A DNA stretch of 12,678 nucleotides from a virus. Taxonomy: Duplodnaviria > Heunggongvirae > Uroviricota > Caudoviricetes. The notes below the pieces were generated by a model that did not search any database, was not told where the DNA came from, and was given only the letters and a program-made list of their open reading frames with translations. The stretch lies in IMG/VR virus record IMGVR_UViG_2778261246_000007; one strand, 5' to 3'. Of this stretch, positions 1 to 12,678 are shown piece after piece (within the stretch, counting starts at the first letter, position 1; the number at the start of each line of letters is the position of its first letter). The position numbers and the translations under genes were made by a program.

Positions 1-141
1 TTACTGCTTACACTGTAAGAACGCCGCAAACTCCGCTCCCCAGAAGCTCATCCGTATTTCGCACAGCGAACCGTGCAGCATCCAGATGATGAGGATTGCC
101 GTCACGCAGAACGTGATGGCCGTAAGCGATTTTTGCGACAT
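1..141 (-). CDS. Hok/Gef-family type I toxin (small membrane peptide), 46 aa
   Basis: Reverse-strand ORF (ATG at 139-141, TAA at 1-3) translating to MSQKSLTAITFCVTAILIIWMLHGSLCEIRMSFWGAEFAAFLQCKQ. It has a hydrophobic N-terminal helix followed by SLCEIR and E-x-AAFL-x-CK, the Hok/Gef signature as I recall it (HokA-like). AAGGAG Shine-Dalgarno lies 8 nt upstream (rc of 150-155). The 8..271 ORF in the track is a different frame overlapping this gene, in the position of a mok-like reading frame. Confidence 0.6.
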   Translation of the reverse strand: MSQKSLTAITFCVTAILIIWMLHGSLCEIRMSFWGAEFAAFLQCKQ

Positions 142-331
142 AGCACTTGCTCCTTTTCAGGAGAGGCGCTAACCTTTCACTTGTCAAGGTAATGCGGTTA
201 GGGCCTCGGTTAAACAGAGATGTTTTCCGGGGCCTTTCCACATCTGGCCTTCGGGTATTCCCTCCGACCATCAGCCGAAAGGCACCCGCGCGTAATCTAT
301 CGCTTTTTTGTTACTCCGGCAATTCTGCTCG

Positions 332-592
332 TTAATTCTGAGATAAGGGCAAACTCATCTGATTGTTCCCCCTGTGTGAAGCTGGCAGAGCCTGCCACGG
401 TATGTCTTCTGAAGAATGAACTTCTGAGGTGTGTTTTGATGTGAACTTATGAAAAGCTTCCAGTGTTGAGAAGCATACGCCGCATTCCAGGTTATTACAC
501 TGGTAATACTTTTGCCGCACGGTGTTTGAGTCATTTTCCGGACGACTGGTGCGGATACGGGCAGACGCGCCACAAAGTGGACAACGGAACAT
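332..592 (-). CDS. ogr: Ogr/Delta-family zinc-finger late gene transcriptional activator
   Basis: 86-aa ORF MFRCPLCGASARIRTSR...YYQCNNLECGVCF with the C-x2-C...C-x4-C arrangement and ARTSR motif of P2 Ogr. Strong SD AAGGGAGG 5-6 nt upstream of the ATG (rc of 593-610). Confidence 0.88.
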   Translation of the reverse strand: MFRCPLCGASARIRTSRPENDSNTVRQKYYQCNNLECGVCFSTLEAFHKFTSKHTSEVHSSEDIPWQALPASHRGNNQMSLPLSQN

Positions 593-1016
593 AGCGACCT
601 CCCTTAACGTGGTGTTTCTATTATTCTAAGTTGTACTAATACTGATTCCAACTAACTGCTTGCTTTGAGTGAAAACCAGAAGTTTGCAGTTGAATTTTCA
701 CTGAGTAAGTAGTCGAGATTGACTATGCACTAGTAGGATTATTCTACGTGATTGAAGGCAACTTGTTGGTATGTAGATGATTTTACTGGTGGCAGTGTTG
801 TAAGTTTTTATCTCCCCGGTTTGTCTTTGACGCTATCTACTAGTTATTTAGTCGTGCTAAAATAAAACGCTGATTGAGTTCCTTTGGGTTAGGTTGATAA
901 CTCTCAGAGACTTTGGGAGGTGTAAGATTCGAACTTAATCGCTAAGTTTCATACTCTTGGCACTCGTTTGCCTCTACAAAAGTATGTTTTTTAACACAAA
1001 TAAAAGAAGTGCATTT

Positions 1017-2429
1017 ATGAGTATTCAACATATAAAAGTTGGCAGTATATCAGAAATTATTGATCTATCATCTAATTCTGGCGAGCATGCTGATTCTCAT
1101 CCTTTTATCCTCTCGAAGAACTGTGTATGGGGAGAACAGGGGGCAGAAATATCAATTGAGAAATTGCGCCAAAATATTGAGCCCTGGCTAACAGCTCTCT
1201 TCCAATCAGAGCATTTAAATTTATTAATCGGTGCAGGCTTAAGCTCGGCTATTCAAAAATCAGCTACAGGTTTATCTCCAGTAGGGATGGGGTGGATTAA
1301 TGATTTAAAAGTATGTAAAAGCGAAATAGATGAATTTTCCACTCAGGCTGCAAAAGCTGCAGGTCGCGACAGAGGAAATATAGAAGACCAAATTAGAACT
1401 ATCAATGAACTTATTAAAGGTCTCGAAATTTTAACGGTGTTAAATACTCCTCAACCAGAAAATCCGCCACCTCCTTATTCTGCTTATAGAAACTTAAAAG
1501 CAGACTTGGGCGAGCTCAAAGGCGAGCTTTCTAGATGCTTGGGGGAGTTTTCTAAATCTATAATTAAAGGAGAATATTTAATCAAAACTGCTGAACCAGC
1601 CCGGAAAGAGGAAACTTTCAACTATCTAGTTAGTTTTTTGATGAGCTTTGCAAGTAGAACTGCCACTCGCGATAGGCTACATATCTTTACAACAAATTAT
1701 GACCGTATTATTGAAGTGGGTGCTGAGCTTGCTGGTTTAAGACTTATTGATCGCTTTGTAGGAAGTATTGCTCCAGTATTTCGATCCTCAAGATTAGAAG
1801 TTGATTATCATTATAATCCTCCTGGAATCCGTGGTGAACCAAGATACTTGGAGGGCGTGGCACGTTTTACTAAACTTCATGGTTCCCTTGATTGGCATGA
1901 ACAAAATAATGCGATTAGGCGCTTTGGCTTACCCTTTGGAGCACGTTCTGTTGAGCCGTTTTTGGAAGCCGAAGGTCATCAAAGCAATGGCTATGAAAAA
2001 CTGATGATTTACCCTAATTCAGTAAAAGACAGAGAAACAGCCGAGTATCCTTATGTTGAGCTATTTCGAGATCTGGCAGCAGCAACTAGCCGTCCAAATA
2101 GCACATTAGTCACTTATGGTTATAGCTTTGGTGATGAGCATATCAATAGAGTAATTGAAGACATGCTTACGGTACCTTCCACTCATATAGTAATAATAGC
2201 CTTTGGCGATCCACTTGGCAGAATTATGCGTTTCATTAGTAATAGTGGAAGAAAAGCACAGATCACCCTTTTAATGGGAGATCATTTAGGAGACTTCAAA
2301 ACTTTAGTTGATAACTATTTACCTAAACCAGCTATTGATAAAGCATCAATCAAGATGGCAGAGTTGCTCAAACAAAGAGGCTTTATGCAGTTCAAAGAGT
2401 TAGGTAATTCAGCCGAAGTTGAGGTATGA
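1017..2429 (+). CDS. SIR2-like (SIR2_2/DUF4020-type) NAD-binding protein, predicted NADase effector of a SIR2-HerA system
   Basis: Motifs read directly from the translation: LLIGAGLS (nt 1221-1244, GAG Rossmann motif), FTTNYD (nt 1686-1703), KLHGSLDW with HGS (nt 1878-1886). Start is ambiguous: ATG 1017 is preferred (MSIQHIK...), alternatives are TTG 957 and ATG 984; none has a strong SD. The TGA stop at 2427-2429 overlaps the downstream start region. Confidence 0.82.
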   Translation: MSIQHIKVGSISEIIDLSSNSGEHADSHPFILSKNCVWGEQGAEISIEKLRQNIEPWLTALFQSEHLNLLIGAGLSSAIQKSATGLSPVGMGWINDLKVCKSEIDEFSTQAAKAAGRDRGNIEDQIRTINELIKGLEILTVLNTPQPENPPPPYSAYRNLKADLGELKGELSRCLGEFSKSIIKGEYLIKTAEPARKEETFNYLVSFLMSFASRTATRDRLHIFTTNYDRIIEVGAELAGLRLIDRFVGSIAPVFRSSRLEVDYHYNPPGIRGEPRYLEGVARFTKLHGSLDWHEQNNAIRRFGLPFGARSVEPFLEAEGHQSNGYEKLMIYPNSVKDRETAEYPYVELFRDLAAATSRPNSTLVTYGYSFGDEHINRVIEDMLTVPSTHIVIIAFGDPLGRIMRFISNSGRKAQITLLMGDHLGDFKTLVDNYLPKPAIDKASIKMAELLKQRGFMQFKELGNSAEVEV

Positions 2430-2431
2430 CA

Positions 2432-4465
2432 ATGAGTTATTTACCAATAGAAAAAATAGAACAACTAAGAATTGGAACTGTTGAGTTTGTATCACCTAAT
2501 GAAATTAGGGTGTCTTTAGAGATTGATTCTCCTGATTCAGTATCACTTCAAGGTGGGGCGCCTCGTAATTTTCCTAGAATAAATAGTTATATTTTAATCC
2601 GTAGTGATGACGGGTTTCTTGTTGGGCAAGTTGAGTGGATTGCAATAGAAAACTCGCCATATCCCAAAAGAAGAGGCTTACAAGATTTTGGGTTGATAGA
2701 CCTTCCTTTCCCACTTAAAAAGCTCAGTATCAATCCAGTTGGTACATTGAGAGTTGATAGAAAAAACGAAGGTTTCAGGTTCACGAGAGGAACTGATGCT
2801 TTCCCTTCGGTTGGTGACTCTGTGCTTTTGCCTACTGACCGACAATTACAATCAATAATTGAATCAGGTGATAATAGAAGGGTAAAAATAGGGGATAGCC
2901 CCCTAGCTAACAATGCTGAAATAAAAGTAGACCCCGATAGACTTTTCGGACGACATATAGCTGTTTTAGGTAATACGGGTAGTGGTAAATCATGTTCGGT
3001 GGCCGGCTTAATTCAATGGTCTCTTGATGCTGTTTTACAACAGGGAAAATCTCCAAATGCTCGATTTATAATACTTGATCCGAACGGAGAATATAGTAGA
3101 GCTTTAGGGCCAGAATCAAGATATAAGGGTAAACTATTACGTGTAGAGGCTAACATCGATGTCGGAGAGATGGATCTTAAAGTACCTTCATGGTTATGGA
3201 ATAGTTCTGAGTGGGCTGCTTTCACTCAAGCAAGTTCAAAGGTGCAACTTCCTTTACTACGTCGTGCTTTGAGGGCAATGAGGAATAATCTTCTATCAGA
3301 AGATGATGTGAAAATTCAAGCCAAACGCTTTTGCGGTATCCTTCTTGTATCTATGAGACAGCAGGCAAGTCAAGGTCAGATATATGTGAATAGTGGATCT
3401 GCTAAAGGTTTGGTTGAAACTTTGGGTTCTTGGAGAGATAGTATTTCTATCTTAAACGAGAGAATTGTTGATAAATCGCTCGATAAGCTAATAAACACAA
3501 TAAATACGTATCTTTCTTCACGAAGTGGATCTTCTTGGCCAGCAAAGCCTGTTGTTTCCGAGATTGAGTTGTTGATTAATGGATTTAGAGATGCATATAC
3601 AGCTCTAGGGGGAGATGAACAAGAACTTCTTCCAAAAAGCGAAGATGCGCCTATGCGTTTTAAAGGCGATGATTTTGTCGCATATCTCGAAGCTCTGGCT
3701 CAAGAAACAGGTACAGAACAATTCGTGGAGTTTCTTTTGACTCGTATTCGAACAATGCTAGGTGACACTCGTATTAGTGCAGTAACCAATGATTCTGTAA
3801 AGCCTATAAGTTTAACTAATTGGTTAGACACTTTTCTCGGTAAAAATGAACAAGGATCTATAACTGTTATAGATTTATCTCTAGTACCAAATGAAATAAT
3901 TCATTTGGTAACAGCTGTAATTTCTAGGGTGGCTTTTGAAGCACTACAACGTTATCGAAGATTAAATGGAAGGCCGCTACCAACAGTTTTAGTTGCAGAA
4001 GAAGCGCATACGTTTATTAAACGTTACAAGGAAGATAGTGAAACTCAGTCAGTCTCTGATATATGTTGCAAGGTGTTTGAAAAGATTGCACGGGAAGGAA
4101 GAAAGTTTGGGCTAGGCCTTGTTGTTTCTTCCCAAAGGCCATCAGAGCTATCTCCGACGGTTTTATCTCAATGTAATACTTTTTTGTTGCACAGGATTAG
4201 TAATGATAGAGATCAAGAGCAAGTACATAGACTTGTTCCAGATAATATGAGAGGGCTGTTGAGAGAGCTGCCATCGTTACCATCTAGGCATGCTATTTTA
4301 CTTGGATGGGCTTCAGAACTTCCTGTTTTAGTTAGAATGAAAGAGCTTACTGAAAAACAACGACCGCAATCTGATGATCCTGATTTTTGGGATGTGTGGT
4401 CTGGCACTACAAAAGAACCTCGGAAAGTTAATTGGCAACAGATAGCTGATGATTGGCAAAGTTGA
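2432..4465 (+). CDS. herA: HerA-family (FtsK/HerA superfamily) P-loop ATPase, partner of the SIR2 protein
   Basis: Walker A GNTGSGKS (nt 2969-2992), ILDPNGEY motif, Walker-B-like VLVAEEAH (nt 3986-4009), VVSSQRPSEL, and about 170 residues before the P-loop where HerA proteins have their HAS-barrel. ATG 2432 has GAGG 7 nt upstream; the alternative ATG 2426 overlaps the SIR2 stop as ATGA. Confidence 0.88.
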   Translation: MSYLPIEKIEQLRIGTVEFVSPNEIRVSLEIDSPDSVSLQGGAPRNFPRINSYILIRSDDGFLVGQVEWIAIENSPYPKRRGLQDFGLIDLPFPLKKLSINPVGTLRVDRKNEGFRFTRGTDAFPSVGDSVLLPTDRQLQSIIESGDNRRVKIGDSPLANNAEIKVDPDRLFGRHIAVLGNTGSGKSCSVAGLIQWSLDAVLQQGKSPNARFIILDPNGEYSRALGPESRYKGKLLRVEANIDVGEMDLKVPSWLWNSSEWAAFTQASSKVQLPLLRRALRAMRNNLLSEDDVKIQAKRFCGILLVSMRQQASQGQIYVNSGSAKGLVETLGSWRDSISILNERIVDKSLDKLINTINTYLSSRSGSSWPAKPVVSEIELLINGFRDAYTALGGDEQELLPKSEDAPMRFKGDDFVAYLEALAQETGTEQFVEFLLTRIRTMLGDTRISAVTNDSVKPISLTNWLDTFLGKNEQGSITVIDLSLVPNEIIHLVTAVISRVAFEALQRYRRLNGRPLPTVLVAEEAHTFIKRYKEDSETQSVSDICCKVFEKIAREGRKFGLGLVVSSQRPSELSPTVLSQCNTFLLHRISNDRDQEQVHRLVPDNMRGLLRELPSLPSRHAILLGWASELPVLVRMKELTEKQRPQSDDPDFWDVWSGTTKEPRKVNWQQIADDWQS

Positions 4466-4563
4466 GATGTTTAACCAATTTCCAGTGGGGCTATAAGCAG
4501 TGTCTCATATTTGAGATAGGAAGGAGCTGATTCCTTTCGATTGATACAGTACGAAATTATATA

Positions 4564-4589
4564 TGTCCGCTCTTGGCACAGAGCGGACA
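4564..4589. terminator. Perfect 9-bp inverted repeat hairpin between the convergent HerA and D genes; likely D terminator, possibly bidirectional
   Basis: tgtccgctc (4564-4572), loop ttggcaca, gagcggaca (4581-4589). On the minus strand it is followed by AT-rich tatataatttcg. It lies about 45 nt past the D stop and about 100 nt past the HerA stop. Confidence 0.4.
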
Positions 4590-4633
4590 GTCAGAAAACT
4601 GAAGGGGGTAGGCGTGCAATACATCTTAGCTGA

Positions 4634-5743
4634 TCAAGCTGTTTCTGCTATCCATTCCGGGATTTTTGCCTCAAGTTCAAGCTGCGTGGTAAAGCCGCTG
4701 TTATCAATGGTGTGCTCGGCTTTTGCAATAATCCAGTCCTGATTATCAATCTCGCTTTTAAATCCTGTTACCGTGCCATGCATTTCGGGGTAGAGTTCTG
4801 CTCGTCCACGTGCCAGCGTGATGGAGAATGATGCGGCTCCGCGTTGTAGTTGTTGCCACTTTGCCGCCGCTGCGCGTCTTGCTGCCTGCTCGTTCTGATA
4901 AGTCTTGCGTAACACAAACACATTGCCTTCCGCGCCTTCCATATAATCACCTTCACGGCTGCTGCTTTTCTCTTTTTTCGGTTTTGGCGGTTTGCGGCGT
5001 TTCACGCTGACTTTTTTCTTTTTCCCGTAATTAAGATCAAGCCAGTAAGCGCGTACCCCCGTATACGACTCGCGGTCAGCAATGCGGAACTGATGGCGAT
5101 CGCCGCTGCTGCGTGTGATGGCGAACGATGGCAACGGCTGGCCCTGTGCGTTCACGCCACCGCCGGGCATGATGAATAACAGATTACCGCTTTTTACTGT
5201 GGTGATTGCGCCCAGCATTTCCGCCATGCGCGTAAGGAAGGACATGTCACTTTCTTCGGTCTGGTCGGCGTGGTCGATTTCGATATCCATCAGCATTTCG
5301 CTGATTTGCGGTTTCAGACCGTACCGATGAGCGATGGCGGATACCACACGCTCAACGGTCACATCATGCCAGGACACCTCACGTTTAACGTTAAATTCAT
5401 CCCGAAAATCTGCGCTTCTGGCTGAAACAGTCAGCCTGTCCGGCGGTCCTTCGTGTGCGATTTCATCAACAATGTAAGTGCCTTTTTCTGTCAGCGGTTC
5501 GCCTTTCCAGCCAATGAGAACCGTCAGGCGCGCGCCCCGTGGCGCTAGCTGCAACTGACCATCCGCATCATCCAGCGTGATGGTGAGCTGGTCCGCCTCA
5601 AATCCCCGGTTGTCGGTCAGTGACAGGGTCATCAGGCGCTCTGCCACGCCTGACAGCGTTTTACCCTCCGCGAGAATATCAAAATCCGGCATTTTCACGG
5701 GGTCTGTGCCCTGACTGAGCAATTGCATGGTGGTATCGGTCAT
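4634..5743 (-). CDS. D: P2 gpD-like tail protein (late control gene D)
   Basis: 369-aa ORF with P2 D-like sequence as I recall it. Start is taken at ATG 5741-5743, preceded by AGGGAGGG SD (rc of 5749-5756), rather than the longer 413-aa track ORF. Confidence 0.85.
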   Translation of the reverse strand: MTDTTMQLLSQGTDPVKMPDFDILAEGKTLSGVAERLMTLSLTDNRGFEADQLTITLDDADGQLQLAPRGARLTVLIGWKGEPLTEKGTYIVDEIAHEGPPDRLTVSARSADFRDEFNVKREVSWHDVTVERVVSAIAHRYGLKPQISEMLMDIEIDHADQTEESDMSFLTRMAEMLGAITTVKSGNLLFIMPGGGVNAQGQPLPSFAITRSSGDRHQFRIADRESYTGVRAYWLDLNYGKKKKVSVKRRKPPKPKKEKSSSREGDYMEGAEGNVFVLRKTYQNEQAARRAAAAKWQQLQRGAASFSITLARGRAELYPEMHGTVTGFKSEIDNQDWIIAKAEHTIDNSGFTTQLELEAKIPEWIAETA

Positions 5744-5900
5744 CTGTTCCCTCCCTGTGTGGCATGGTCGCATGTGCGTGCGGAGGGGGTTACTGCTTTT
5801 TGTTGTCGCCGGGTCGGGAGAACGGCGCAGGGGTGAGATTACGCGCGTGGTGGGTGATGATTGTTGCCGAATCATTTAACGGATACAAGGGGCTGAAGCT

Positions 5901-7085
5901 ATGAGTGAAACTCGTTTTCATGGTGCCCGTGTTACGGAAAATACCGACCTGGTAACAGCGATTAACGATGTTGATTCCAGCGTTATCGGTATCGTGGCAA
6001 CGGCGGATGATGCGGACGCGAAGCTGTTCCCGCTGAACAAGCCCACATTGCTGACCCGCGTCAATGACGTGCTGGGAAAATGCGGAACAACGGGGACGCT
6101 TTATCGTGCGCTTAAGGCCATCGCAGACCAGGTGAGCACAAAGGTGATCGTCGTTCGCGTGGCTGAACACAAAGAAGAAGACGGAAAGACGCAGGATCAA
6201 CTGGTTATCGGTGGTTCTGAGGATGACGGCAGCTATACGGGGATGTATGCGTTGCTTGTTGCAGAGCAGGATGAAAGCATCGGATACCGTCCGCGTATTC
6301 TGGCCGCGCCGGAGCTGGACACGGAGGCTGTAACAAAATCCCTGTGCGTGATTGCAGGTAAACTGCGCGCGTTTGTGTATGCCTCATGTCACGGCTGTAA
6401 CACGATGGCTGAGGCGATTACCTATCGCCAGAAATTCAACGAACGTGAGGTGATGCTCTTATGGCCGGACTTCATCGCCTACAACCCGAAAAGTGGCAAA
6501 AACGAAACGTTCCCCGCGCCTGCCTATGCGTGCGGCCTTCGTGCGTACATTGACCATGAGCAGGGGTGGCACAAATCACTGTCCAACGTTCCGGTTAAAA
6601 ATGTGCTGGGGATGTCGAGGCATGTGTTCTGGTCGTTGCAGGCCGAAGACAGCGATGCCAACAGCCTCAACAACAAAGAAATCACGACCATTATTCGTCG
6701 CAACGGGTTCCGCTTCTGGGGCAACCGCACACCGGAAACGAACGCCTACATCTTTGAGGTGTATACCCGAACCGCACAGGTGCTGGCTGATTCAATTGCG
6801 GAAGCGCAGTTTGAAACCATCGACAGTCCACTGACGCCTGCGAACGTGAAGGATGTTATCAGTGCCATCAGGGCAAAACTGGATTCGCTGGTTACTGCCG
6901 GGAAACTGATTGGCGCGGAGTGCTGGTATGACGTGGTGGATAACGGCACCACGGATTTACGTCAGGGGCGTGTGCGTATTCGCTACAAATATACGCCCGT
7001 TCCGCCACTGGAAGACATGGAGCTTTACCAGACGTTTACTGATGAATTCTTTGGTCCCGCATTTGCGGTGCTGGGAGGTGCCTGA
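5901..7085 (+). CDS. FI: Contractile tail sheath protein (P2 gpFI-like)
   Basis: 394 aa with recognisable gpFI blocks (NKPTLLT, GFRFWGNRT, YTRTAQV, YKYTPVPPLE). SD aagggg upstream; stop overlaps the FII start as TGATG. Confidence 0.92.
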   Translation: MSETRFHGARVTENTDLVTAINDVDSSVIGIVATADDADAKLFPLNKPTLLTRVNDVLGKCGTTGTLYRALKAIADQVSTKVIVVRVAEHKEEDGKTQDQLVIGGSEDDGSYTGMYALLVAEQDESIGYRPRILAAPELDTEAVTKSLCVIAGKLRAFVYASCHGCNTMAEAITYRQKFNEREVMLLWPDFIAYNPKSGKNETFPAPAYACGLRAYIDHEQGWHKSLSNVPVKNVLGMSRHVFWSLQAEDSDANSLNNKEITTIIRRNGFRFWGNRTPETNAYIFEVYTRTAQVLADSIAEAQFETIDSPLTPANVKDVISAIRAKLDSLVTAGKLIGAECWYDVVDNGTTDLRQGRVRIRYKYTPVPPLEDMELYQTFTDEFFGPAFAVLGGA

Positions 7086-7597
7086 TGGCTGTACCAAAAC
7101 ATCTTCGCTTTTTTACGTTGTTTGTGGATGGTGAAAACGAAGTGGGTAAAGTGACATCCGTCACGCCGCCCAAACTGACGCGCAAAACCGACAGCTATCG
7201 TGGTGGTGGCATGATGGGGGCGGTAAGTATTGATCTCGGTCTGGACGACTCCGCGCTTGATGCGAGTTTTGTTATGGGGGGGGCTGTTCGTGCGCTGTTC
7301 CTTAAATATGGCGGCACGATTGACGGCACGCTGCTGCGTTTTGCGGGTGAATACTACACCGATGCAGAAAGCGATCTGTATGAAATCGAGATGCGCGGAC
7401 GTGTGACGGAAATTGATATGGGGGAAGCCAAACAGGGCGAAGCCACATCACACACTTACGCTGTCAAAAACACCTACTACAAGCTGAGCGTTAACGATCG
7501 CCCGCTGTGGGAAATCGACCTGTTGAACCACATCTACCGGAAGGACGGCAAGGACATTGTGCCTGACCGTATCCGTTCCGCGCTTGGGCTTGGCTGA
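7085..7597 (+). CDS. FII: Tail tube protein (P2 gpFII-like)
   Basis: 170 aa immediately after FI with overlapping stop/start, GGGAGGTG SD upstream; size and position match gpFII. Confidence 0.88.
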   Translation: MAVPKHLRFFTLFVDGENEVGKVTSVTPPKLTRKTDSYRGGGMMGAVSIDLGLDDSALDASFVMGGAVRALFLKYGGTIDGTLLRFAGEYYTDAESDLYEIEMRGRVTEIDMGEAKQGEATSHTYAVKNTYYKLSVNDRPLWEIDLLNHIYRKDGKDIVPDRIRSALGLG

Positions 7598-7652
7598 TAA
7601 GTAATATGCAGGCGGCGCAGTGCGTCGCCTCTGACTGAAAAGGAGACAACTG

Positions 7653-8027
7653 ATGAAAGACATCGATACTGAAACCCGGAATAACACCGTGGCGGATGAT
7701 GTGACGGCAGGTGAGGATATGGCTGTCGAACGTGGCGTAAAACTTTCCCGGCCAATTGAGCGTGGTGCCGAAAAAATCACATATGTGGAAATCACCGGGG
7801 CTATTGAGCAGGCGGGATCCCTGCGTGGTCTGTCGCTGTCTGATGTGCTGAATCTGAAAGCGGATACCATGTTCACGCTGTTGCCTCGCGTGACCTCGCC
7901 ACGACTGGATGAAGTGATGATTAAAAAAATGTCGTCACGCGATTTTATTCAGTTGTGCGCTGTGGCTGTAAATTTTATGAGCGAGCCAGACTCTGGCGCG
8001 AAGAGCGTGCAGGAGACGGCAGCGTAA
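7653..8027 (+). CDS. E: Tail assembly chaperone gpE-like (zero-frame product)
   Basis: 124-aa ORF with AAGGAG SD 7 nt upstream, located between tube and tape-measure genes as in the P2 FETUD operon. Confidence 0.8.
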   Translation: MKDIDTETRNNTVADDVTAGEDMAVERGVKLSRPIERGAEKITYVEITGAIEQAGSLRGLSLSDVLNLKADTMFTLLPRVTSPRLDEVMIKKMSSRDFIQLCAVAVNFMSEPDSGAKSVQETAA

Positions 8028-8191
8028 TTACCCTGGTGTGCTTTGAGCACATCGAAGATCTGGTGGCGGATATTGCCGCCATTTTTAACTGGTCGCCCGC
8101 CGAAATCTTCATGATGACGCCCGGCGAAGTGGTTAGCTGGCGTGAGCGGGCGGCACTTCGCAGCGGGAATGTAGATAATGAAGACTCTTGA
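7653..8191 (+). CDS. gpE+E' frameshift fusion product (E N-terminus to 7976, then -1 frame to stop at 8189-8191)
   Basis: Overlapping -1 frame ORF downstream of the slippery site; analogous to P2 E/E+E' and lambda G/GT. The fusion ends inside the start of T. Confidence 0.55.
7970..7976 (+). other. Slippery heptamer A_AAT_TTT for programmed -1 frameshift E to E+E'
   Basis: In the E frame the codons are gtA AAT TTT, an X_XXY_YYZ heptamer. The -1 frame from here is open to 8191 and matches the track ORF 7955..8191 (KFYERARLW...). Confidence 0.6.
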
Positions 8192-10985
8192 TATCCGGGT
8201 CGCTTTCAGCGCCGTTGACAGGCTGACCCGGCCTGCCGAAAACGCCCGCCGCCTGATGGGGCAGTTTGGTGACTCCATCCAGCGAACGCAGGGGGCGATC
8301 AAAAATCTCGAGCGTCAGGCGCGTTCATTTGAGCGCGCCCGTGACGCTGTCAGTAAAGCGGATGCGGGCATCGTGAAAGCACGACGCCAGCTTAACGCCC
8401 TTAATCAGTTACAACGCACGGGTACAGTGCTCAGCGAAAAACAACAAAAGCTGATGCAGCAGTTAAGCACCCGGCTTGAACGCCTGAATGAATCGCGCAC
8501 ACGGGAAATTCAGAAAATGCGGGAGCTTGGCGGAGAACTGAAACGCCACGGCATTTCCCTGACAGGCAGCGATAACACCATTCAGCAGGCCATCAGACGC
8601 ACCGAACAATACAACAACCAGCTTGAACGCGAACGGCAGGCGCTTGCGCGTGTAACGCGGGCGCGTGAGCGGTATTCGCGCGCGCAGGAAACAGCGGGAA
8701 AACTGAAAACAGGTGGTGCGCTGGCAATTGGTGCGGCAGCGGCGGGCGGCTATGCTGCCGAGCGTTTTTTGCAGCCTGCGATCGGGTTCGGGAAAGAGAT
8801 GTCCCGCGTTCAGGCACTGACGCGAATCGACAAAAACAGCCCGCAGTTTAAGGCGCTGCGTGAGCAGGCGTTAAAACTTGGCTCTGAAACGCAGTTCACC
8901 GCAGGCGATGCCGCCAGTGGGCAGGCATTTCTTGCAATGGCTGGCTTCACACCGCAGGCCATTCAGGCTGCGCTCCCTGGCGTACTGAGCATGGCAACGG
9001 CTGGCGGTATGGACCTCGGTGAGACGGCGGATATTGGCTCAAATATTCTGACGCAGTTCGGTCTTTCTGCTGACCAGATGGACCGGGTCGGCGACACACT
9101 CACCGCAGCGTTTACCCGTACCAACACTGACCTTCGCGCACTGGGTGAAACCATGAAATATGCAGGTCCGGTGGCGGGTAAGCTGGGAATATCGCTGGAG
9201 CAGGCCGCAGCGATGGCGGGCGTGCTGGCGAATATGGGTATCAGGGGGAGTGATGCTGGTACGGCAATGCGTGCCAGCCTGGCTCGTCTGGCATCACCGC
9301 CAAAGGCGGCAGCAGAGGCGCTGAAAGAGCTTGGCGTGTCTGTCTCGGATGCCGGGGGCAAAATGCGCCCGATGGAGGATGTGCTGGCTGACCTTTATAA
9401 AGCTACCCGCAAATACGGGGAAGTTGACCGGGTATCGTTCTTTAAGGACATTGCCGGAGAAGAGGCTTTCACATCATTTATGGCCCTCGTTGATGCGGCA
9501 GGTGACGGCTCCTTACCCAAACTGAGAAAAGAACTTGAAGGCGCGCGCGGTGAGGCTGAACGCACGGCAAAGGTTATGGCCAACAACCTTGACGGCGATC
9601 TGAAATCACTCAGCAGTGCATGGGAAGGGTTGCGCATCCGCATTGCAGATCTGATTGACGGTCCGCTGCGTTCTGTCACGCAGTGGCTCACGCGTGTGGT
9701 ATCAAAGGTGACGGCGCTGGCGCAGGCCCATCCCGCACTGACGCGCCAGCTACTGATTGCAGGCGGTGCACTGCTGGCAATGACTGCAACGGTTGGCTCG
9801 TTGTCGCTGGCTATTGGTGTGTTTGCTGGCCCGCTGGCAAAACTGCGTCTTGGTTTTTCCCTCCTGACCGGATCAATGAATGCTGTCAGGGTTCTGCCAG
9901 CACTATGGGGAATGGTGACGGGTTCCGTTTCTTTACTGGGAGGCGCTATCGGGGCGTTGTTCAGTCCGGTTGGTCTTATCGTGGTTGCGCTTGCCGGAGC
10001 TGCCGTTCTTATCTGGAAATACTGGGATCCCATCAGGGCATTTTTTGCCGGAGTGTTCAGCGGGATTATGGAAAGGCTGACCCCGTTGCGCGAAACCTTT
10101 GAACGGTTTGGTCCTGTTTTTGACGCAATCGGGAGTGGGATCAGCCAGGTGTTTAACTGGTTTAAATCGCTGCTGTCACCGATGGAGTCCAGCAAGGAAA
10201 CTCTGGATAAATGTACCAGTGCTGGCGAGATATTCGGTAACGTTCTTGGCGGTGCGTTACAACTTGTTCTGACACCTGCAAAAATGTTGCTGGATACGCT
10301 GGCGTGGATACTTGAAAAGCTTGGTGTGCTTCCGGATGAAGCGGAAAGGGCGCGCAAGAAAATCGAAGACGCACAGCGTGCGGCCATTCTTCAGGACAAG
10401 GTTGCCTTGCTTCAGGGGGACCTGGCGAAAATCAATCCGCCGAAGCCTGTGGAAAATGGCAATGGCACCGGAGGTGATAACCCCAAAGACAATAAACCGC
10501 TCACAGACAGCAATACCGGTACGCTGCGCAGACTCAGCAAAATTGCTGATAACACAGGTAAGCTGGTTGATGAGACGAAAAAACGCATTGGCCCCGGCGA
10601 TATTGTCTTTAAGAACCTGCCCCGCGCACTTGCTGTTCGTGGGGAGTGGCAGGAGCGGAAGATTGCACAGGTCAGTAAGCCTGCTTCCGCAATCAACATC
10701 ACACCTGTGGTCCCGGCTCCGCTGCCTCCGGCGCTGGTCCCTGTTGTTGCGGCCAGCTCCCGCCCGGTGGCGGAGGCCATACGATCGCCAGTGGCATCAG
10801 TTCCTGCAACTTCCCGTAACCGGGAGCCTGCTGTCTCCGGATTTTGCGGTGAAATTCATGTTCATCTGCATAACGTTGTTACGCAGAATCCCCGCGAACT
10901 GGCGAAACTGGTCGGTGAAATGGTCAGGGCAGAAATGGAACGGCGCGCCCGTGCCGGGCGTGGCAGTTTTTACGATAAAGATTGA
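8178..10985 (+). CDS. T: Tail tape measure protein (P2 gpT-like)
   Basis: 935 aa; coiled-coil-rich N-terminal part, Gly/Ala-rich hydrophobic central segments and a Pro-rich C-terminal region; sits between E/E' and U. Confidence 0.9.
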   Translation: MKTLDIRVAFSAVDRLTRPAENARRLMGQFGDSIQRTQGAIKNLERQARSFERARDAVSKADAGIVKARRQLNALNQLQRTGTVLSEKQQKLMQQLSTRLERLNESRTREIQKMRELGGELKRHGISLTGSDNTIQQAIRRTEQYNNQLERERQALARVTRARERYSRAQETAGKLKTGGALAIGAAAAGGYAAERFLQPAIGFGKEMSRVQALTRIDKNSPQFKALREQALKLGSETQFTAGDAASGQAFLAMAGFTPQAIQAALPGVLSMATAGGMDLGETADIGSNILTQFGLSADQMDRVGDTLTAAFTRTNTDLRALGETMKYAGPVAGKLGISLEQAAAMAGVLANMGIRGSDAGTAMRASLARLASPPKAAAEALKELGVSVSDAGGKMRPMEDVLADLYKATRKYGEVDRVSFFKDIAGEEAFTSFMALVDAAGDGSLPKLRKELEGARGEAERTAKVMANNLDGDLKSLSSAWEGLRIRIADLIDGPLRSVTQWLTRVVSKVTALAQAHPALTRQLLIAGGALLAMTATVGSLSLAIGVFAGPLAKLRLGFSLLTGSMNAVRVLPALWGMVTGSVSLLGGAIGALFSPVGLIVVALAGAAVLIWKYWDPIRAFFAGVFSGIMERLTPLRETFERFGPVFDAIGSGISQVFNWFKSLLSPMESSKETLDKCTSAGEIFGNVLGGALQLVLTPAKMLLDTLAWILEKLGVLPDEAERARKKIEDAQRAAILQDKVALLQGDLAKINPPKPVENGNGTGGDNPKDNKPLTDSNTGTLRRLSKIADNTGKLVDETKKRIGPGDIVFKNLPRALAVRGEWQERKIAQVSKPASAINITPVVPAPLPPALVPVVAASSRPVAEAIRSPVASVPATSRNREPAVSGFCGEIHVHLHNVVTQNPRELAKLVGEMVRAEMERRARAGRGSFYDKD

Positions 10986-10997
10986 GGAGTCATGGCC

Positions 10998-11486
10998 ATG
11001 ATGATGATCTATGGCATGTTTGTTTTTGAGCTGCGCACGCTGCCGCATCAGCAGTTACAGCAAAACAAAAGCTGGCGGCATGTGAAAAATGAACGCGTTA
11101 ACCGTTCAGCAAGCTGGCAGTATATCGGTGCAGGTGATGATCGCATCGTTCTTTCTGGTGTGCTTTATCCTGAAATTACAGGTGGCGAAGTGTCGCTGTC
11201 GCTGCTGACCACGCAGGCGTATACAGGACGACCCTGGCCTTTGATTGATGGCGTCGGGCAGATTTACGGCATGTATGTCCTGACCGGAACGAATACGATC
11301 CGTTCCGAGTTTGATCGCTACGGTAAGGCGAAAAAGATAGAATTTTCACTGACCCTTGAACGCTGTGATGAGGATTTGCGGGAGCGCCTGCAATCCTCAT
11401 CGTTCAGCGATATGCTGTCCGGCTTCAAAGATAAGGTGGCGTCATCCCTTAACAGTGCGGTCAGTTCTGTTAAGGGACTGTTCTGA
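10998..11486 (+). CDS. U: Tail protein gpU-like
   Basis: About 162 aa starting MMMIYGMFVFELRTLP..., resembling P2 gpU as I recall it. GGAG lies 9 nt upstream of ATG 10998; ATG 10992 is an alternative start. Confidence 0.82.
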   Translation: MMMIYGMFVFELRTLPHQQLQQNKSWRHVKNERVNRSASWQYIGAGDDRIVLSGVLYPEITGGEVSLSLLTTQAYTGRPWPLIDGVGQIYGMYVLTGTNTIRSEFDRYGKAKKIEFSLTLERCDEDLRERLQSSSFSDMLSGFKDKVASSLNSAVSSVKGLF

Positions 11487-11529
11487 TTTAACGCAAATCA
11501 CAAATAGTTAGATAAACAGAAATAACGAT

Positions 11530-11556
11530 AAGGCCCGATATTCGGGCCTTTCGTTT
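11530..11556. terminator. Bidirectional rho-independent terminator between convergent U and tail-fibre assembly genes
   Basis: Stem aaggcccg (11530-11537), loop atatt, cgggcctt (11543-11550), followed by tcgtttatt on the + strand and by atcgttatttctgttt on the minus strand. Confidence 0.65.
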
Positions 11557-12088
11557 ATTCTGGTTGATCAGGGAACGTAACGGGTAATTCAGTGGTATCA
11601 GTGGTCTCAACTTGTTGCACGTACCGCATCCAGCGCATCAGTTGTTGCTTATCTGAATCACTGATAATCCCTAATGCAAGCTGGGTCTGCCAGAACTGCG
11701 TTTTTTCTCTGGCCTGCTGTAATAACCTTTGTTTCTGGTTTTCAGCCTGCAAGCGTTGCTCTTCTTCGGTATACACACGTTTAATGACTGAGCCATCTTT
11801 AAACATCCAGTTACCTGAAATATCAGCGCGTCGGTTTGCTGTAATATTAGGCAACTCGACAACACTTTTTCCTTCCGGGCAAATTGCAGTTACATCCGTT
11901 TGCACGTCGCATATGACATTATTTTCATCATATGCAATCTTTATGGTGTCTGGCTGAAAGTTCTTTTGTTCCTCATACCAGTTTTTACCATCTTCAGCGA
12001 ATAACCAGACAACGCCGGAGTTTTTAGTTAACAGGTACTGTTCTTTTGTTTTTGGATTGCCCGGTTTTATATTTTTTAAATGCATCAT
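11555..12088 (-). CDS. Tail fibre assembly protein (Tfa / P2 gpG-like chaperone)
   Basis: 177 aa starting MMHLKNIKPGNPKTKEQY... with WYEEQKNFQPDT and C-terminal TDTTELPVTFPDQPE typical of Tfa proteins. ATG at 12086-12088 lies 2 nt from the upstream tail-fibre stop. Confidence 0.85.
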   Translation of the reverse strand: MMHLKNIKPGNPKTKEQYLLTKNSGVVWLFAEDGKNWYEEQKNFQPDTIKIAYDENNVICDVQTDVTAICPEGKSVVELPNITANRRADISGNWMFKDGSVIKRVYTEEEQRLQAENQKQRLLQQAREKTQFWQTQLALGIISDSDKQQLMRWMRYVQQVETTDTTELPVTFPDQPE

Positions 12089-12090
12089 AA

Positions 12091-12657
12091 TCAAACACTC
12101 GATACGTTATACCATGTACCATTAATATTTTTTTGAATTGGTCTGTAATAAACACCACCAATATTATCGGCAGAGTTTGAGCCTGTATCCTGAACGATAA
12201 TCCCGGTATATGCGCAACCAGATGGAGCCTGATGCGTCCATGTTGTACCGTTATTTGCTGGTTTATAGGATGACGCACCACCAAGTCTAATATCCCGGAC
12301 ATAGCGTGAATCAAAGTTGCCATAGTTAGATGGTGATACCTGCCCGTTAACAGCAAAAGTGATGCTGTTATCTGTATTTCTCTGACTGTAAAAATGCCAG
12401 CCTGCATCATCACCTAATTCAGCCACCACCGGACGACTTGCGTTTCCCCACAAATTGAATGCGGCTTCCTTCGTGGATGTATTGCTGCTGCTGACCGTGA
12501 ACTTTTTCCCGCTACCGGCACGTACTTTGGTACTTGAGACAATATCACCTGTGAGCTGGCCCCCTGAAATACCAGACAGTAGATGTATCTTAAAATAAGA
12601 GATAGGCTTGGATATATGTCTAACACTAGTTCTAATTTTGAGATGGCTGGCGTTTTG
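12091..12657 (-). CDS. Tail fibre C-terminal (receptor-binding) segment, start-less within the window
   Basis: The frame is open from 12657 down to the stop at 12091-12093 and ends ...GGVYYRPIQKNINGTWYNVSSV. The only in-frame canonical start is TTG at 12451-12453. An in-frame stop at 12658-12660 lies upstream, and the other frames there do not look coding. Confidence 0.5.
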   Translation of the reverse strand, partial: QNASHLKIRTSVRHISKPISYFKIHLLSGISGGQLTGDIVSSTKVRAGSGKKFTVSSSNTSTKEAAFNLWGNASRPVVAELGDDAGWHFYSQRNTDNSITFAVNGQVSPSNYGNFDSRYVRDIRLGGASSYKPANNGTTWTHQAPSGCAYTGIIVQDTGSNSADNIGGVYYRPIQKNINGTWYNVSSV

Positions 12658-12678
12658 TTAGGAAAAGAGGTGCGTAAA

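Follow-up and report, generated by a model that had tools for sequence, protein, structure and literature searches.

The insert between ogr and D

We analysed a stretch of 12,678 nucleotides (nt) of tailed-phage DNA, hereafter the window (Caudoviricetes; IMG/VR record IMGVR_UViG_2778261246_000007), in which about 4 kb of AT-rich DNA separates the phage genes ogr and D and encodes a SIR2 family protein and a HerA-type ATPase. An original prediction, made from the sequence, had described this interval as AT-rich cargo with two genes on the strand opposite to D and ogr. This description is accurate, the GC content being 39.1% for the ogr-to-D interval and 0.36-0.41 along positions 600-4600 versus 0.50-0.60 in the phage genes. 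The insert and its two flanks contain the following features, where ORF stands for open reading frame.

332-592, - strand: ogr, flanking the cargo site on the left; encodes an Ogr/Delta zinc-finger late-gene activator (Pfam PF04606, E = 4.4e-14; RefSeq)
623-651, - strand: predicted sigma-70 promoter for ogr, TTGGAA-N17-TAGAAT (consensus match only)
625-633: left copy of a 9-bp direct repeat, TCTAAGTTG (junctions of 13 occupied alleles and of P88)
633-4633: cargo cassette, absent from the empty site of P88; 39% GC (BLAST against P88, GC values)
658-681: degenerate type-B palindrome (18/24) in the ogr-side cassette end (alignment of ogr-side ends)
1017-2429, + strand: SIR2 family gene (ORF list, Pfam, RefSeq)
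2426/2432-4465, + strand: HerA-type ATPase gene, RefSeq name ATP-binding protein (ORF list, Pfam, RefSeq)
4564-4589: perfect hairpin TGTCCGCTCT-TGGCAC-AGAGCGGACA, 10-bp stem and 6-nt loop, separating HerA from the convergent D gene (called terminator-like on the - strand)
4624-4632: right, degenerate copy of the direct repeat, TCTTAGCTG (7/9), one base from the D stop codon (window sequence)
4634-5743, - strand: gene D ('late control D', a tail/baseplate hub), flanking the cargo site on the right (Pfam Phage_GPD, E = 2.2e-17; RefSeq)

The SIR2 protein (470 aa) matches the PADLOC SIR2 profile PDLC04079 with E = 3e-155 as well as Pfam SIR2_2, and its catalytic and NAD-binding motifs GAGLS, FTTNYD and KLHGS are intact in the translation. 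The HerA protein, 679 aa long from the ATG at 2426 (RefSeq places the start at 2432), matches PADLOC profile PDLC04098 with E = 1.9e-252 over residues 7-678 and Pfam DUF87, and its Walker A (GNTGSGKS) and Walker B (VLVAEEAH) motifs are intact too. The two genes are adjacent and co-oriented, the HerA ATG at 2426 overlapping the SIR2 stop codon by 4 nt. When compared with solved structures, SIR2 aligned with the SIR2 chain of 8J4U over about 240 residues (E = 3.6e-21), with TNYD and LHGS in register, and HerA matched the HerA chains of SIR2-HerA complexes in the PDB with E = 2e-48 to 2e-36. Judged by the PADLOC profiles and the intact motifs, the insert is a predicted two-gene SIR2-HerA anti-phage defence system.

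Published accounts of such systems, in their available portions (bioRxiv 10.1101/2021.12.14.472415; PMC11514289; PMC11472057; PMC13434337), describe abortive infection with a depletion of NAD+ that depends on SIR2, together with ATPase and nickase activities of HerA, and from membership of this family we infer the function and mechanism of the pair in the window. The order SIR2 then HerA in a co-oriented pair, the catalytic and Walker motifs and the location on a mobile element are shared with the 'Nezha' system (8J4U) and with E. coli types I-III (PMC13434337). The proteins of 'Nezha' differ in length, 415 and 610 aa versus 470 and 679 aa here, and the similarity to them is distant, as the SIR2 value of 3.6e-21 and the best HerA value of 2e-48 indicate.

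The phage and the boundaries of the insert

The original prediction took canonical P2 as its reference, and the phage is not one. The expected one-strand order FI-FII-E-T-U-D followed by ogr, as in the P2 reference where FI-U, D and ogr all lie on one strand, was not found in the window, which has FI-U on the + strand and D and ogr on the - strand. Escherichia phage P88, Xuanwuvirus P884B11 and Citrobacter phage phiSM are 95-98% identical to the window, the insert excepted, P88 and P884B11 being the closest with 96-98%, and in P88-like phages the FI-U block is inverted with respect to D-ogr, so that D diverges from FI. A locus of E. coli strain C7, isolated from a cow, is 100% identical to the window and was the source of the RefSeq annotation; because ihfA lies directly to the left of the window in this locus, the window represents the right end of a prophage. 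By gene order and nucleotide identity, the phage is identified as a P88-like Peduoviridae (Xuanwuvirus/Gemsvirus) prophage adjoining ihfA rather than a canonical P2 (genus Peduovirus). The cargo genes are accordingly antisense to D and ogr, as predicted, but not to the late genes as a whole, being co-oriented with the FI-FII-E-T-U operon (5901-11486, +).

In BLAST comparisons, homology with P88 covers window positions 1-632 and 4639-11497, two blocks that are contiguous in P88. Because this homology stops at 632 and restarts at 4639, the insert extends from about 633 to 4638 and not from 593 to 4633, its predicted placement between ogr and D being otherwise right. That ogr normally follows D directly was also borne out: 43 bp lie between the D stop and the ogr start at the empty site of P88, and 81 bp, which contain the annotated ogr promoter, separate the two genes in the P2 reference.

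SIR2 and HerA are the whole coding content of the insert. No other ORF of at least 50 aa is present in it, including the ogr-side gap, and the ORF list and the Pfam domains agree with the original prediction that the insert holds no integrase or transposase. The gap between ogr and SIR2 was predicted to be non-coding, which it is, and 364 bp long, which presumes a start at TTG 957. Homologues in two other contexts (L015 and L016, described below) conserve the ATG at 1017 and the 40 nt preceding it but not TTG 957, so the gap measures 424 bp. A candidate sigma-54 promoter upstream of SIR2 (TGGCAC...TTGC) was rejected, since its GG-N9-GC spacing is one base short and it is unconserved in L015/L016. 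An Rfam search of the whole window at E values up to 1 returned only a sok-like RNA at 128-287 and two chance-level matches; neither the hairpin nor the 424-nt leader was matched.

The D-ogr junction as a cargo slot

To follow the original suggestion that the D-ogr interval be compared across prophages, window positions 1-11497 were searched against 5426 complete E. coli genomes, which gave 1682 matching records, and 60 of these were taken at even rank steps, the state of the junction being judged by the span of the record and by extra annotated genes. Both flanks were present in 39 of the 60 sampled rows; 22 were empty (about 7.48-7.50 kb) and 17 carried 0.9-3.5 kb of extra DNA. We then fetched 12 annotated occupied loci, 11 from this sample and an Hxs locus from the genome search, and in all 12 the extra genes lay exactly between ogr and D. 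These loci encode a ParA-like ATPase, a 1039-aa 'MFS transporter', PIN, TIR, YecA-like, GmrSD, DUF2971 and DUF3800 proteins, a four-gene HxsDBCA set, and hypothetical proteins of 221, 340 and 384 aa, so that with the SIR2-HerA pair of the window 13 distinct cargos occupy this junction. The cargo lies on the + strand in seven of the fetched loci and on the - strand in five, and the GC content is 0.33-0.43 in all 13 cargos versus 0.50-0.60 in the flanks. The claim that the cargo was acquired is therefore supported by relatives with an empty 43-bp site or another cargo at the same junction, as well as by a composition unlike that of the phage. The 340-aa cargo is also found at the D-ogr site of a deposited phage, 500465-2 (Gemsvirus).

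Among the other cargos, PADLOC matched TIR as bSEFIR (1.4e-44) and DUF2971 as PDC-S31, and it gave no match for seven of the ten single-gene cargos scanned (DUF3800 and Hxs lay outside the scan); GmrSD and PIN are defence-like by annotation only. The Hxs cargo, in strain STEC384 (L014, 2181-5578), is a complete His-Xaa-Ser system of hxsD, hxsB, hxsC and hxsA, that is, two radical-SAM maturases and a repeat peptide, and the insertion sequence (IS) IS2 has inserted in the 3' part of the neighbouring ogr. The presence of Hxs in a slot that otherwise holds defence-type cargo may hint at the role of this system.

As a control, the T-U-D-ogr segment of the P2 reference was searched in the same way against the E. 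coli genomes. D and ogr were contiguous in every sampled record that spanned T-U-D-ogr, the sole extra DNA being an IS21-family element with a split tape-measure gene in three records. Because no junction insertion was found in the sampled true P2-like prophages, the slot is specific to the P88-like lineage, and D-ogr is a lineage-specific cargo hotspot of P88-like E. coli prophages.

The hotspot literature, as far as its texts were available, describes cargo between gpA and gpQ (old/tin) and at Z/fun (PMC9122126; PMC9519451; bioRxiv 10.1101/2024.10.15.618418), the two P2 loci that the original prediction had named. It also gives 'tail protein to CI' and, as less populated sites, int-att, int-primase, 'within the tail genes' and a position downstream of GpL. 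Nowhere do these texts mention ogr, gpD or P88, while their figures and supplements, which lay outside the scope, may hold an entry; to this extent the expectation of a less-described hotspot is upheld. With old/tin (from gpA to the portal gene gpQ) and Z/fun (G-FI) (Rousset 2022, PMC9122126; Vassallo 2022, PMC9519451; Egorov 2024) the D-ogr site shares a fixed slot between Peduoviridae core genes and low-GC, often-exchanged, largely defence cargo of which many genes are unannotated. The G-side end of the Z/fun slot is moreover homologous to the D-side non-coding end of the D-ogr slot, including a palindrome that we call type A. The D-ogr slot differs from both in lying elsewhere and in being confined to the P88-like lineage with its rearranged tail module. 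About half of the P88-like copies are wholly empty at D-ogr, whereas P2 elements are reported never to have both main hotspots empty (PMC13586616).

Spread of the SIR2-HerA cassette

The 3.9-kb cargo core is at least 99.7% identical in 15 of the 5426 E. coli genomes, which come from cattle, pigs, birds and humans. Over the whole matches these genomes are 95.8-100% identical to the window and their backbones differ by up to about 6%, strain 98202 having an implied backbone identity of about 94%. Compared base by base, strain 98202 shows 3 differences in positions 1-4675 and about 500 from 4676 onward. Because nearly all differences lie from 4676 onward, one recombination breakpoint can be placed at the cargo/D junction, and this comparison indicates that the ogr-hok side was transferred together with the cargo. 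The pattern points to homologous recombination between related prophages, as would be expected from such an exchange.

Diverged homologues of the pair were found with 85% nucleotide identity in a tRNA-Phe island (L015, 7043-10491) and with 80% next to traN in an integrative and conjugative element (ICE; L016, 7028-10482). In both the homology is confined to the two genes and about 40-50 bp on each side, and the non-coding ends, judged from these alignments, belong to the phage slot and not to the cargo. By the same matches this SIR2-HerA subtype is present in three kinds of mobile element, and the defence type circulates among their hotspots. SIR2+HerA is also listed among the cargos of the P4 psu-int hotspot (PMC9122126). 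The psu-int hotspot and the variable regions of SXT/R391 ICEs thus share the defence type with the window, the 80% homologue lying next to traN in an ICE, and differ in flanking genes and host elements, with no nucleotide homology past the genes and those 40-50 bp. The L015 homologue lies beside IS903B and integrase genes, and the L016 homologue beside heavy-metal and tet(C) resistance genes.

The ends of the slot

All 13 occupied alleles have homologous non-coding ends that are missing from the empty allele; the ogr-side end measures about 50 nt and the D-side end about 95-110 nt, or about 70 nt in the window. At their outer limits we found direct repeats, which the original prediction had not seen: in the window they are the degenerate pair TCTAAGTTG (625-633) and TCTTAGCTG (4624-4632). 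In sibling alleles the repeat is perfect or near-perfect, the D-side copy being an exact TCTAAGTTG in the TIR, hyp221 and hyp340 alleles, and the empty site of P88 has a single copy (TTCTAAGTT-CC-TCA). Directly inside the direct repeats are imperfect inverted repeats around TAGCTCAGAC. In allele L008 the longest inverted repeat is terminal (632-662 versus 2743-2773, 31 nt, 71% complementary), and a comparable pair exists in L007; the inverted ends of the window are degenerate and fall outside its top inverted repeats. Direct repeats placed outside inverted repeats look as if they were the footprint of an old transposition-like insertion, with deletion between the direct repeats giving the same empty allele. 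Because the ends are homologous in all alleles, such an insertion counts as one historical event and not as thirteen.

The transposase that a present-day transposon or IS would carry was not found: the insert encodes only SIR2 and HerA and has no transposase or integrase domain. A 10-nt match, GACTCCAACT, to an IS1 end does not extend and is missing at the other end, and it was taken as chance.

The predicted ogr promoter straddles the junction, with its -10 box in DNA common to the empty site and its -35 box in the conserved end of the occupied alleles. The motif TCCAAC on the -35 side is kept in 12 of the 13 occupied alleles.

Palindromes at the slot boundaries

A perfect hairpin between the convergent cargo and D had been predicted, and it is present with a 10-bp stem at 4564-4589. 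It dominates the local fold (minimum free energy -26.2 kcal/mol, z = -2.56), it is a predicted terminator for D, and its core, GTCCGCTCTTGGCACAGAGCGGAC at 4565-4588, belongs to one of two types of 24-nt palindrome that have the stem GTCCGCT/AGCGGAC in common. Type A reads GTCCGCTyCTGGCACAGAGCGGAC (loop yCTGGCACAG) and type B GTCCGCTrTGAGCGArrAGCGGA (loop rTGAGCGArr). Type B, degenerate in the window, is clearer in the sibling alleles L005 (at 658) and L007 (at 691). Copies were located by motif scans, local BLAST being insufficiently sensitive for the inverted D-side ends.

The 120-nt D-side end of L008 was found at 983 places in 876 of the 5426 E. coli genomes, mostly as the hairpin and about 40 nt beyond it, and palindromes of this end occur in 1-3 copies per genome in 16% of the genomes. 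Four places were inspected. Three lie between variable cargo and the YeeP-type GTPase/Ag43 backbone of CP4-like islands (L017-L019), and the fourth (L020) lies in a true P2-like prophage between gene G (tail-fibre assembly) and a DUF4145 cargo, which is the Z/fun hotspot. Type-B sites were located in L015 (6703 and 10640), L017 (1859 and 3993), L018 (3278), L019 (2245) and L020 (3786, with type A at 5004). In every inspected hotspot the order is B-cargo-A with a fixed relative orientation, regardless of the direction of the cargo genes, and the island of L017 has an array of the form B, cargo, A-B, cargo, A. Doublets of the form A-CTGAGCTGAAG-B occur between such units and also in cargo-free contexts.

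Outside E. coli, exact type A was found in 51 stretches (L021-L071) of species-representative Enterobacterales genomes, with unrelated flanks and often with type B 12-20 nt later. Homology breaks at the palindrome in L049, L050, L056 and L058. In tblastn searches none of the markers D, ogr, FI, G, GTPase and Ag43 was found in these 51 loci, and the palindromes of other genera have ordinary accessory genes as neighbours, for example GNAT, LysR and AraC. In P2-like phages gene G is followed after 65-88 nt by about 27 of the 38 type-A matches from IMG/VR, and the P2 reference itself has a degenerate, unannotated type-A copy past gene G (L112, 836-859). Type B is commoner: it was found in at least 120 viral stretches, most of them away from P2 and P4 contexts; P4 markers were near 3 of 120 type-B viral matches and near no type-A match. 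Both types are 96% intergenic, enriched at convergent gene ends (28-37%, compared with 5% of random positions) and under-represented between divergent starts.

The DUF2971 cargo homology between L011 and L091 ends 6 nt past palindrome A, and the homology of the window cargo to L015/L016 stops 100-280 nt before their palindromes. The copies at D-ogr decay without compensatory changes. Pairing of the loop GGCACAGAG with a nearby CTCTGTGCC is possible in P2-type and some P88-type copies and absent from the window and from CP4-type copies. An integron attC site was considered and rejected: the bases after the 3' stem are unconserved, there is no GTTRRRY, the R'/R'' cores are absent and the window has no integrase.

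The boundary palindromes resemble both repetitive extragenic palindromes (REP), with their bacterial interspersed mosaic elements (BIME), and integron attC sites in forming two short types that are intergenic, at convergent 3' ends, sometimes in A-linker-B doublets and at cassette junctions. They differ from REP/BIME in being low-copy and without a GTAG head, and no gene for a REP-associated tyrosine transposase (RAYT) was found; from attC they differ in lacking R'/R'' cores, with no intI found, and the window copy has no counterpart in Rfam. They are most economically read as terminator-like or REP-like 3'-end elements. That they serve as exchange points, either as a recombinase site or as portable homology, and so bound B-cargo-A units across unrelated Enterobacterales hotspots, seems to us unlikely. 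In the literature, as far as its texts were available, no mention was found of the palindrome strings or of the cassette protein accessions.

Origin and role of the cassette

We consider it very probable that the insert is SIR2-HerA defence cargo (a moron) in a P88-like Peduoviridae prophage at ihfA, spread by homologous recombination. By analogy with published SIR2-HerA work, the two proteins would form a HerA-SIR2 complex in the lysogen. On infection by another phage this complex would deplete NAD+, with a contribution from the HerA ATPase/nickase, and growth of the infected cell would halt, so that the incoming phage could not spread and clonal lysogens and their prophage would be protected. 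Movement of the cassette among P88-like prophages would rely on homologous recombination within the conserved DNA on either side of it, which is D to the right and ogr-hok to the left. A single insertion may have opened the site itself, duplicating 9 bp (TCTAAGTTG) and importing imperfect inverted ends of about 30 nt. The hairpin after D would terminate D transcripts and insulate the convergent units, and the -35 box supplied by the cassette end would let ogr, cut off from D, keep a promoter of its own.

Several observations weigh against parts of this account. No + strand sigma-70 site for SIR2-HerA in 633-1016 passed our consensus scan. Similarity of the cassette proteins to the solved 'Nezha' system is only distant, and E. 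coli Sir2-HerA comprises eight diverged clusters, defence having been demonstrated for four only (PMC13434337). The degenerate repeats of the window fit a microhomology deletion, leading to an 'empty' allele, equally well. In C7 the portal gene is frameshifted and the tail protein X gene truncated, and the cargo may there sit in a defective prophage. Finally, an ISVsa5 (IS4-family) copy lies in or near the cassette in 3 of the 15 genomes, HCP5S3_I2, LCP30S3_I5 and 2017-03-3CC, and at least two of the three, the pig strains HCP5S3_I2 and LCP30S3_I5, have lost the annotation of SIR2. This suggests inactivation in these pig strains, and the system can be lost or may be costly.

A different route of exchange would make the cargos cassettes with a type-B palindrome at the ogr end and a type-A palindrome at the D end, moved by a dedicated palindrome-based mechanism, whether site-specific, hairpin-directed or by recombination of portable homology, with recombination in phage genes not the main route. 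The fixed B-cargo-A order, which recurs in D-ogr, at Z/fun (L020), in three CP4-like islands and in the L017 array, is what such a mechanism would leave, and the 51 exact type-A copies in Enterobacterales with unrelated flanks and breaks in homology at the palindrome, the clustering of viral type-A matches shortly past gene G and the L011/L091 homology that stops at A speak for it as well; the exchange route between P2/P4 and unrelated elements is also left unexplained in PMC13586616. We nevertheless regard this mechanism as unlikely. No recombinase is associated with the palindromes, they lack the attC core motifs, and their intergenic position, enrichment at convergent ends and ordinary accessory neighbours give them a terminator- or REP-like look. 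The D-ogr copies have decayed without compensation, the homology of the window cargo to L015/L016 ends well before the palindromes, and the sole mapped breakpoint falls within D or at its edge, where plain homologous recombination would put it. It is rather less probable still that SIR2-HerA or the occupied scaffold is ancestral and that the 'empty' alleles arose by deletion between the 9-bp repeats, nothing having been inserted. The empty site does keep one repeat copy, as a microhomology deletion would leave, and the occupied ends are mutually roughly 60-90% identical versus about 95% for D/ogr, which suggests that they are old. Against an ancestral cargo stand the low GC of all 13 alleles relative to the phage, 13 cargos that are mutually unrelated, the near-identity of this cassette (at least 99.7%) in backbones several per cent apart, close homologues in non-phage elements, and the position of D next to ogr in P2 and in the sampled P2-like prophages. 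At most the scaffold is old; the SIR2-HerA cargo is not.

The pair might instead serve the prophage itself, either by stabilising it or addicting the cell to it, or by regulating its induction via NAD+ levels. Maintenance modules are indeed nearby, with hok/sok beside ogr and Phd-Doc and ParM in the same prophage, and triggered SIR2-HerA activity is toxic. The family has been linked experimentally to phage defence in published work, other defence-type cargo (TIR/bSEFIR, GmrSD and PDC-S31) occupies the same site, and most P88-like prophages have no cargo at D-ogr at all, all of which makes a role of this kind very improbable. Defence by SIR2-HerA with spread by homologous recombination is thus the explanation that we retain.

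SIR2-HerA defence and prophage defence hotspots are already well known. What is new relative to the available texts of the hotspot literature is the D-ogr location and its restriction to P88-like phages, together with a non-coding scaffold that is conserved and has palindromes found again at other cargo hotspots. The slot is an addition to the map of prophage defence hotspots in a common E. coli prophage lineage: extrapolating from the 39 of 60 sampled rows, both flanks would be present in roughly a thousand of the 1682 records from 5426 complete genomes. Most of its cargos have no PADLOC match, which makes the slot a source of candidate defence genes, and its empty/occupied polymorphism, with identical cassettes in diverged backbones, provides a natural system for cargo exchange. 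Palindromic exchange points, if true, would be the missing mechanism for the shuttling of defence genes between phages, satellites and islands without common flanks.

Other features of the window

The remaining features of the window lie outside the cargo slot.

1-141, - strand: hok/gef toxin gene (ORF list, Pfam, RefSeq annotation of the identical C7 locus)
5901-11486, + strand: FI, FII, E/E', T and U late operon (ORF list, Pfam, RefSeq)
from 11555, - strand: tail-fibre assembly and tail-fibre genes (ORF list, Pfam, RefSeq)

The hok/gef gene is accompanied by the sok-like antisense RNA at 128-287, which matched Rfam RF01794 with 50.2 bits (gathering score 59; E = 6e-9). This hok/sok pair lies between ogr and the ihfA-side end of the prophage as a second accessory module, and it is conserved in P88 and relatives. 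Elsewhere in the C7 prophage, the slot from the portal gene to the replication gene, which is the equivalent of P2 old/tin, contains Phd-Doc, a ClpX-type zinc-finger protein and a ParM partition module; this slot and the two damaged genes lie at C7 locus positions 37125-37322, 42582-43629 and 44166-46758.

Calls of gene D vary by genome, between a 369-aa 'late control D' and a 266-aa 'VgrG/Pvc8 family' protein with a small pseudogene. The longest ORF of D in the window, from an ATG at 5875, would leave only 25 bp to FI, and a start at 5743 gives a divergent D/FI control region of 157 bp. At the other end of the late operon, homology between the window and P88 ends at 11497, and P88 has a DNA invertase gene after U (P88 locus 8251-8838). 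In the window 68 bp (11487-11554) separate U from the convergent tail-fibre assembly gene, and the tail-fibre end at 11555-12678 is instead similar to the S/U tail-fibre segments found in Mu, P1/P7 and certain Yersinia phages.

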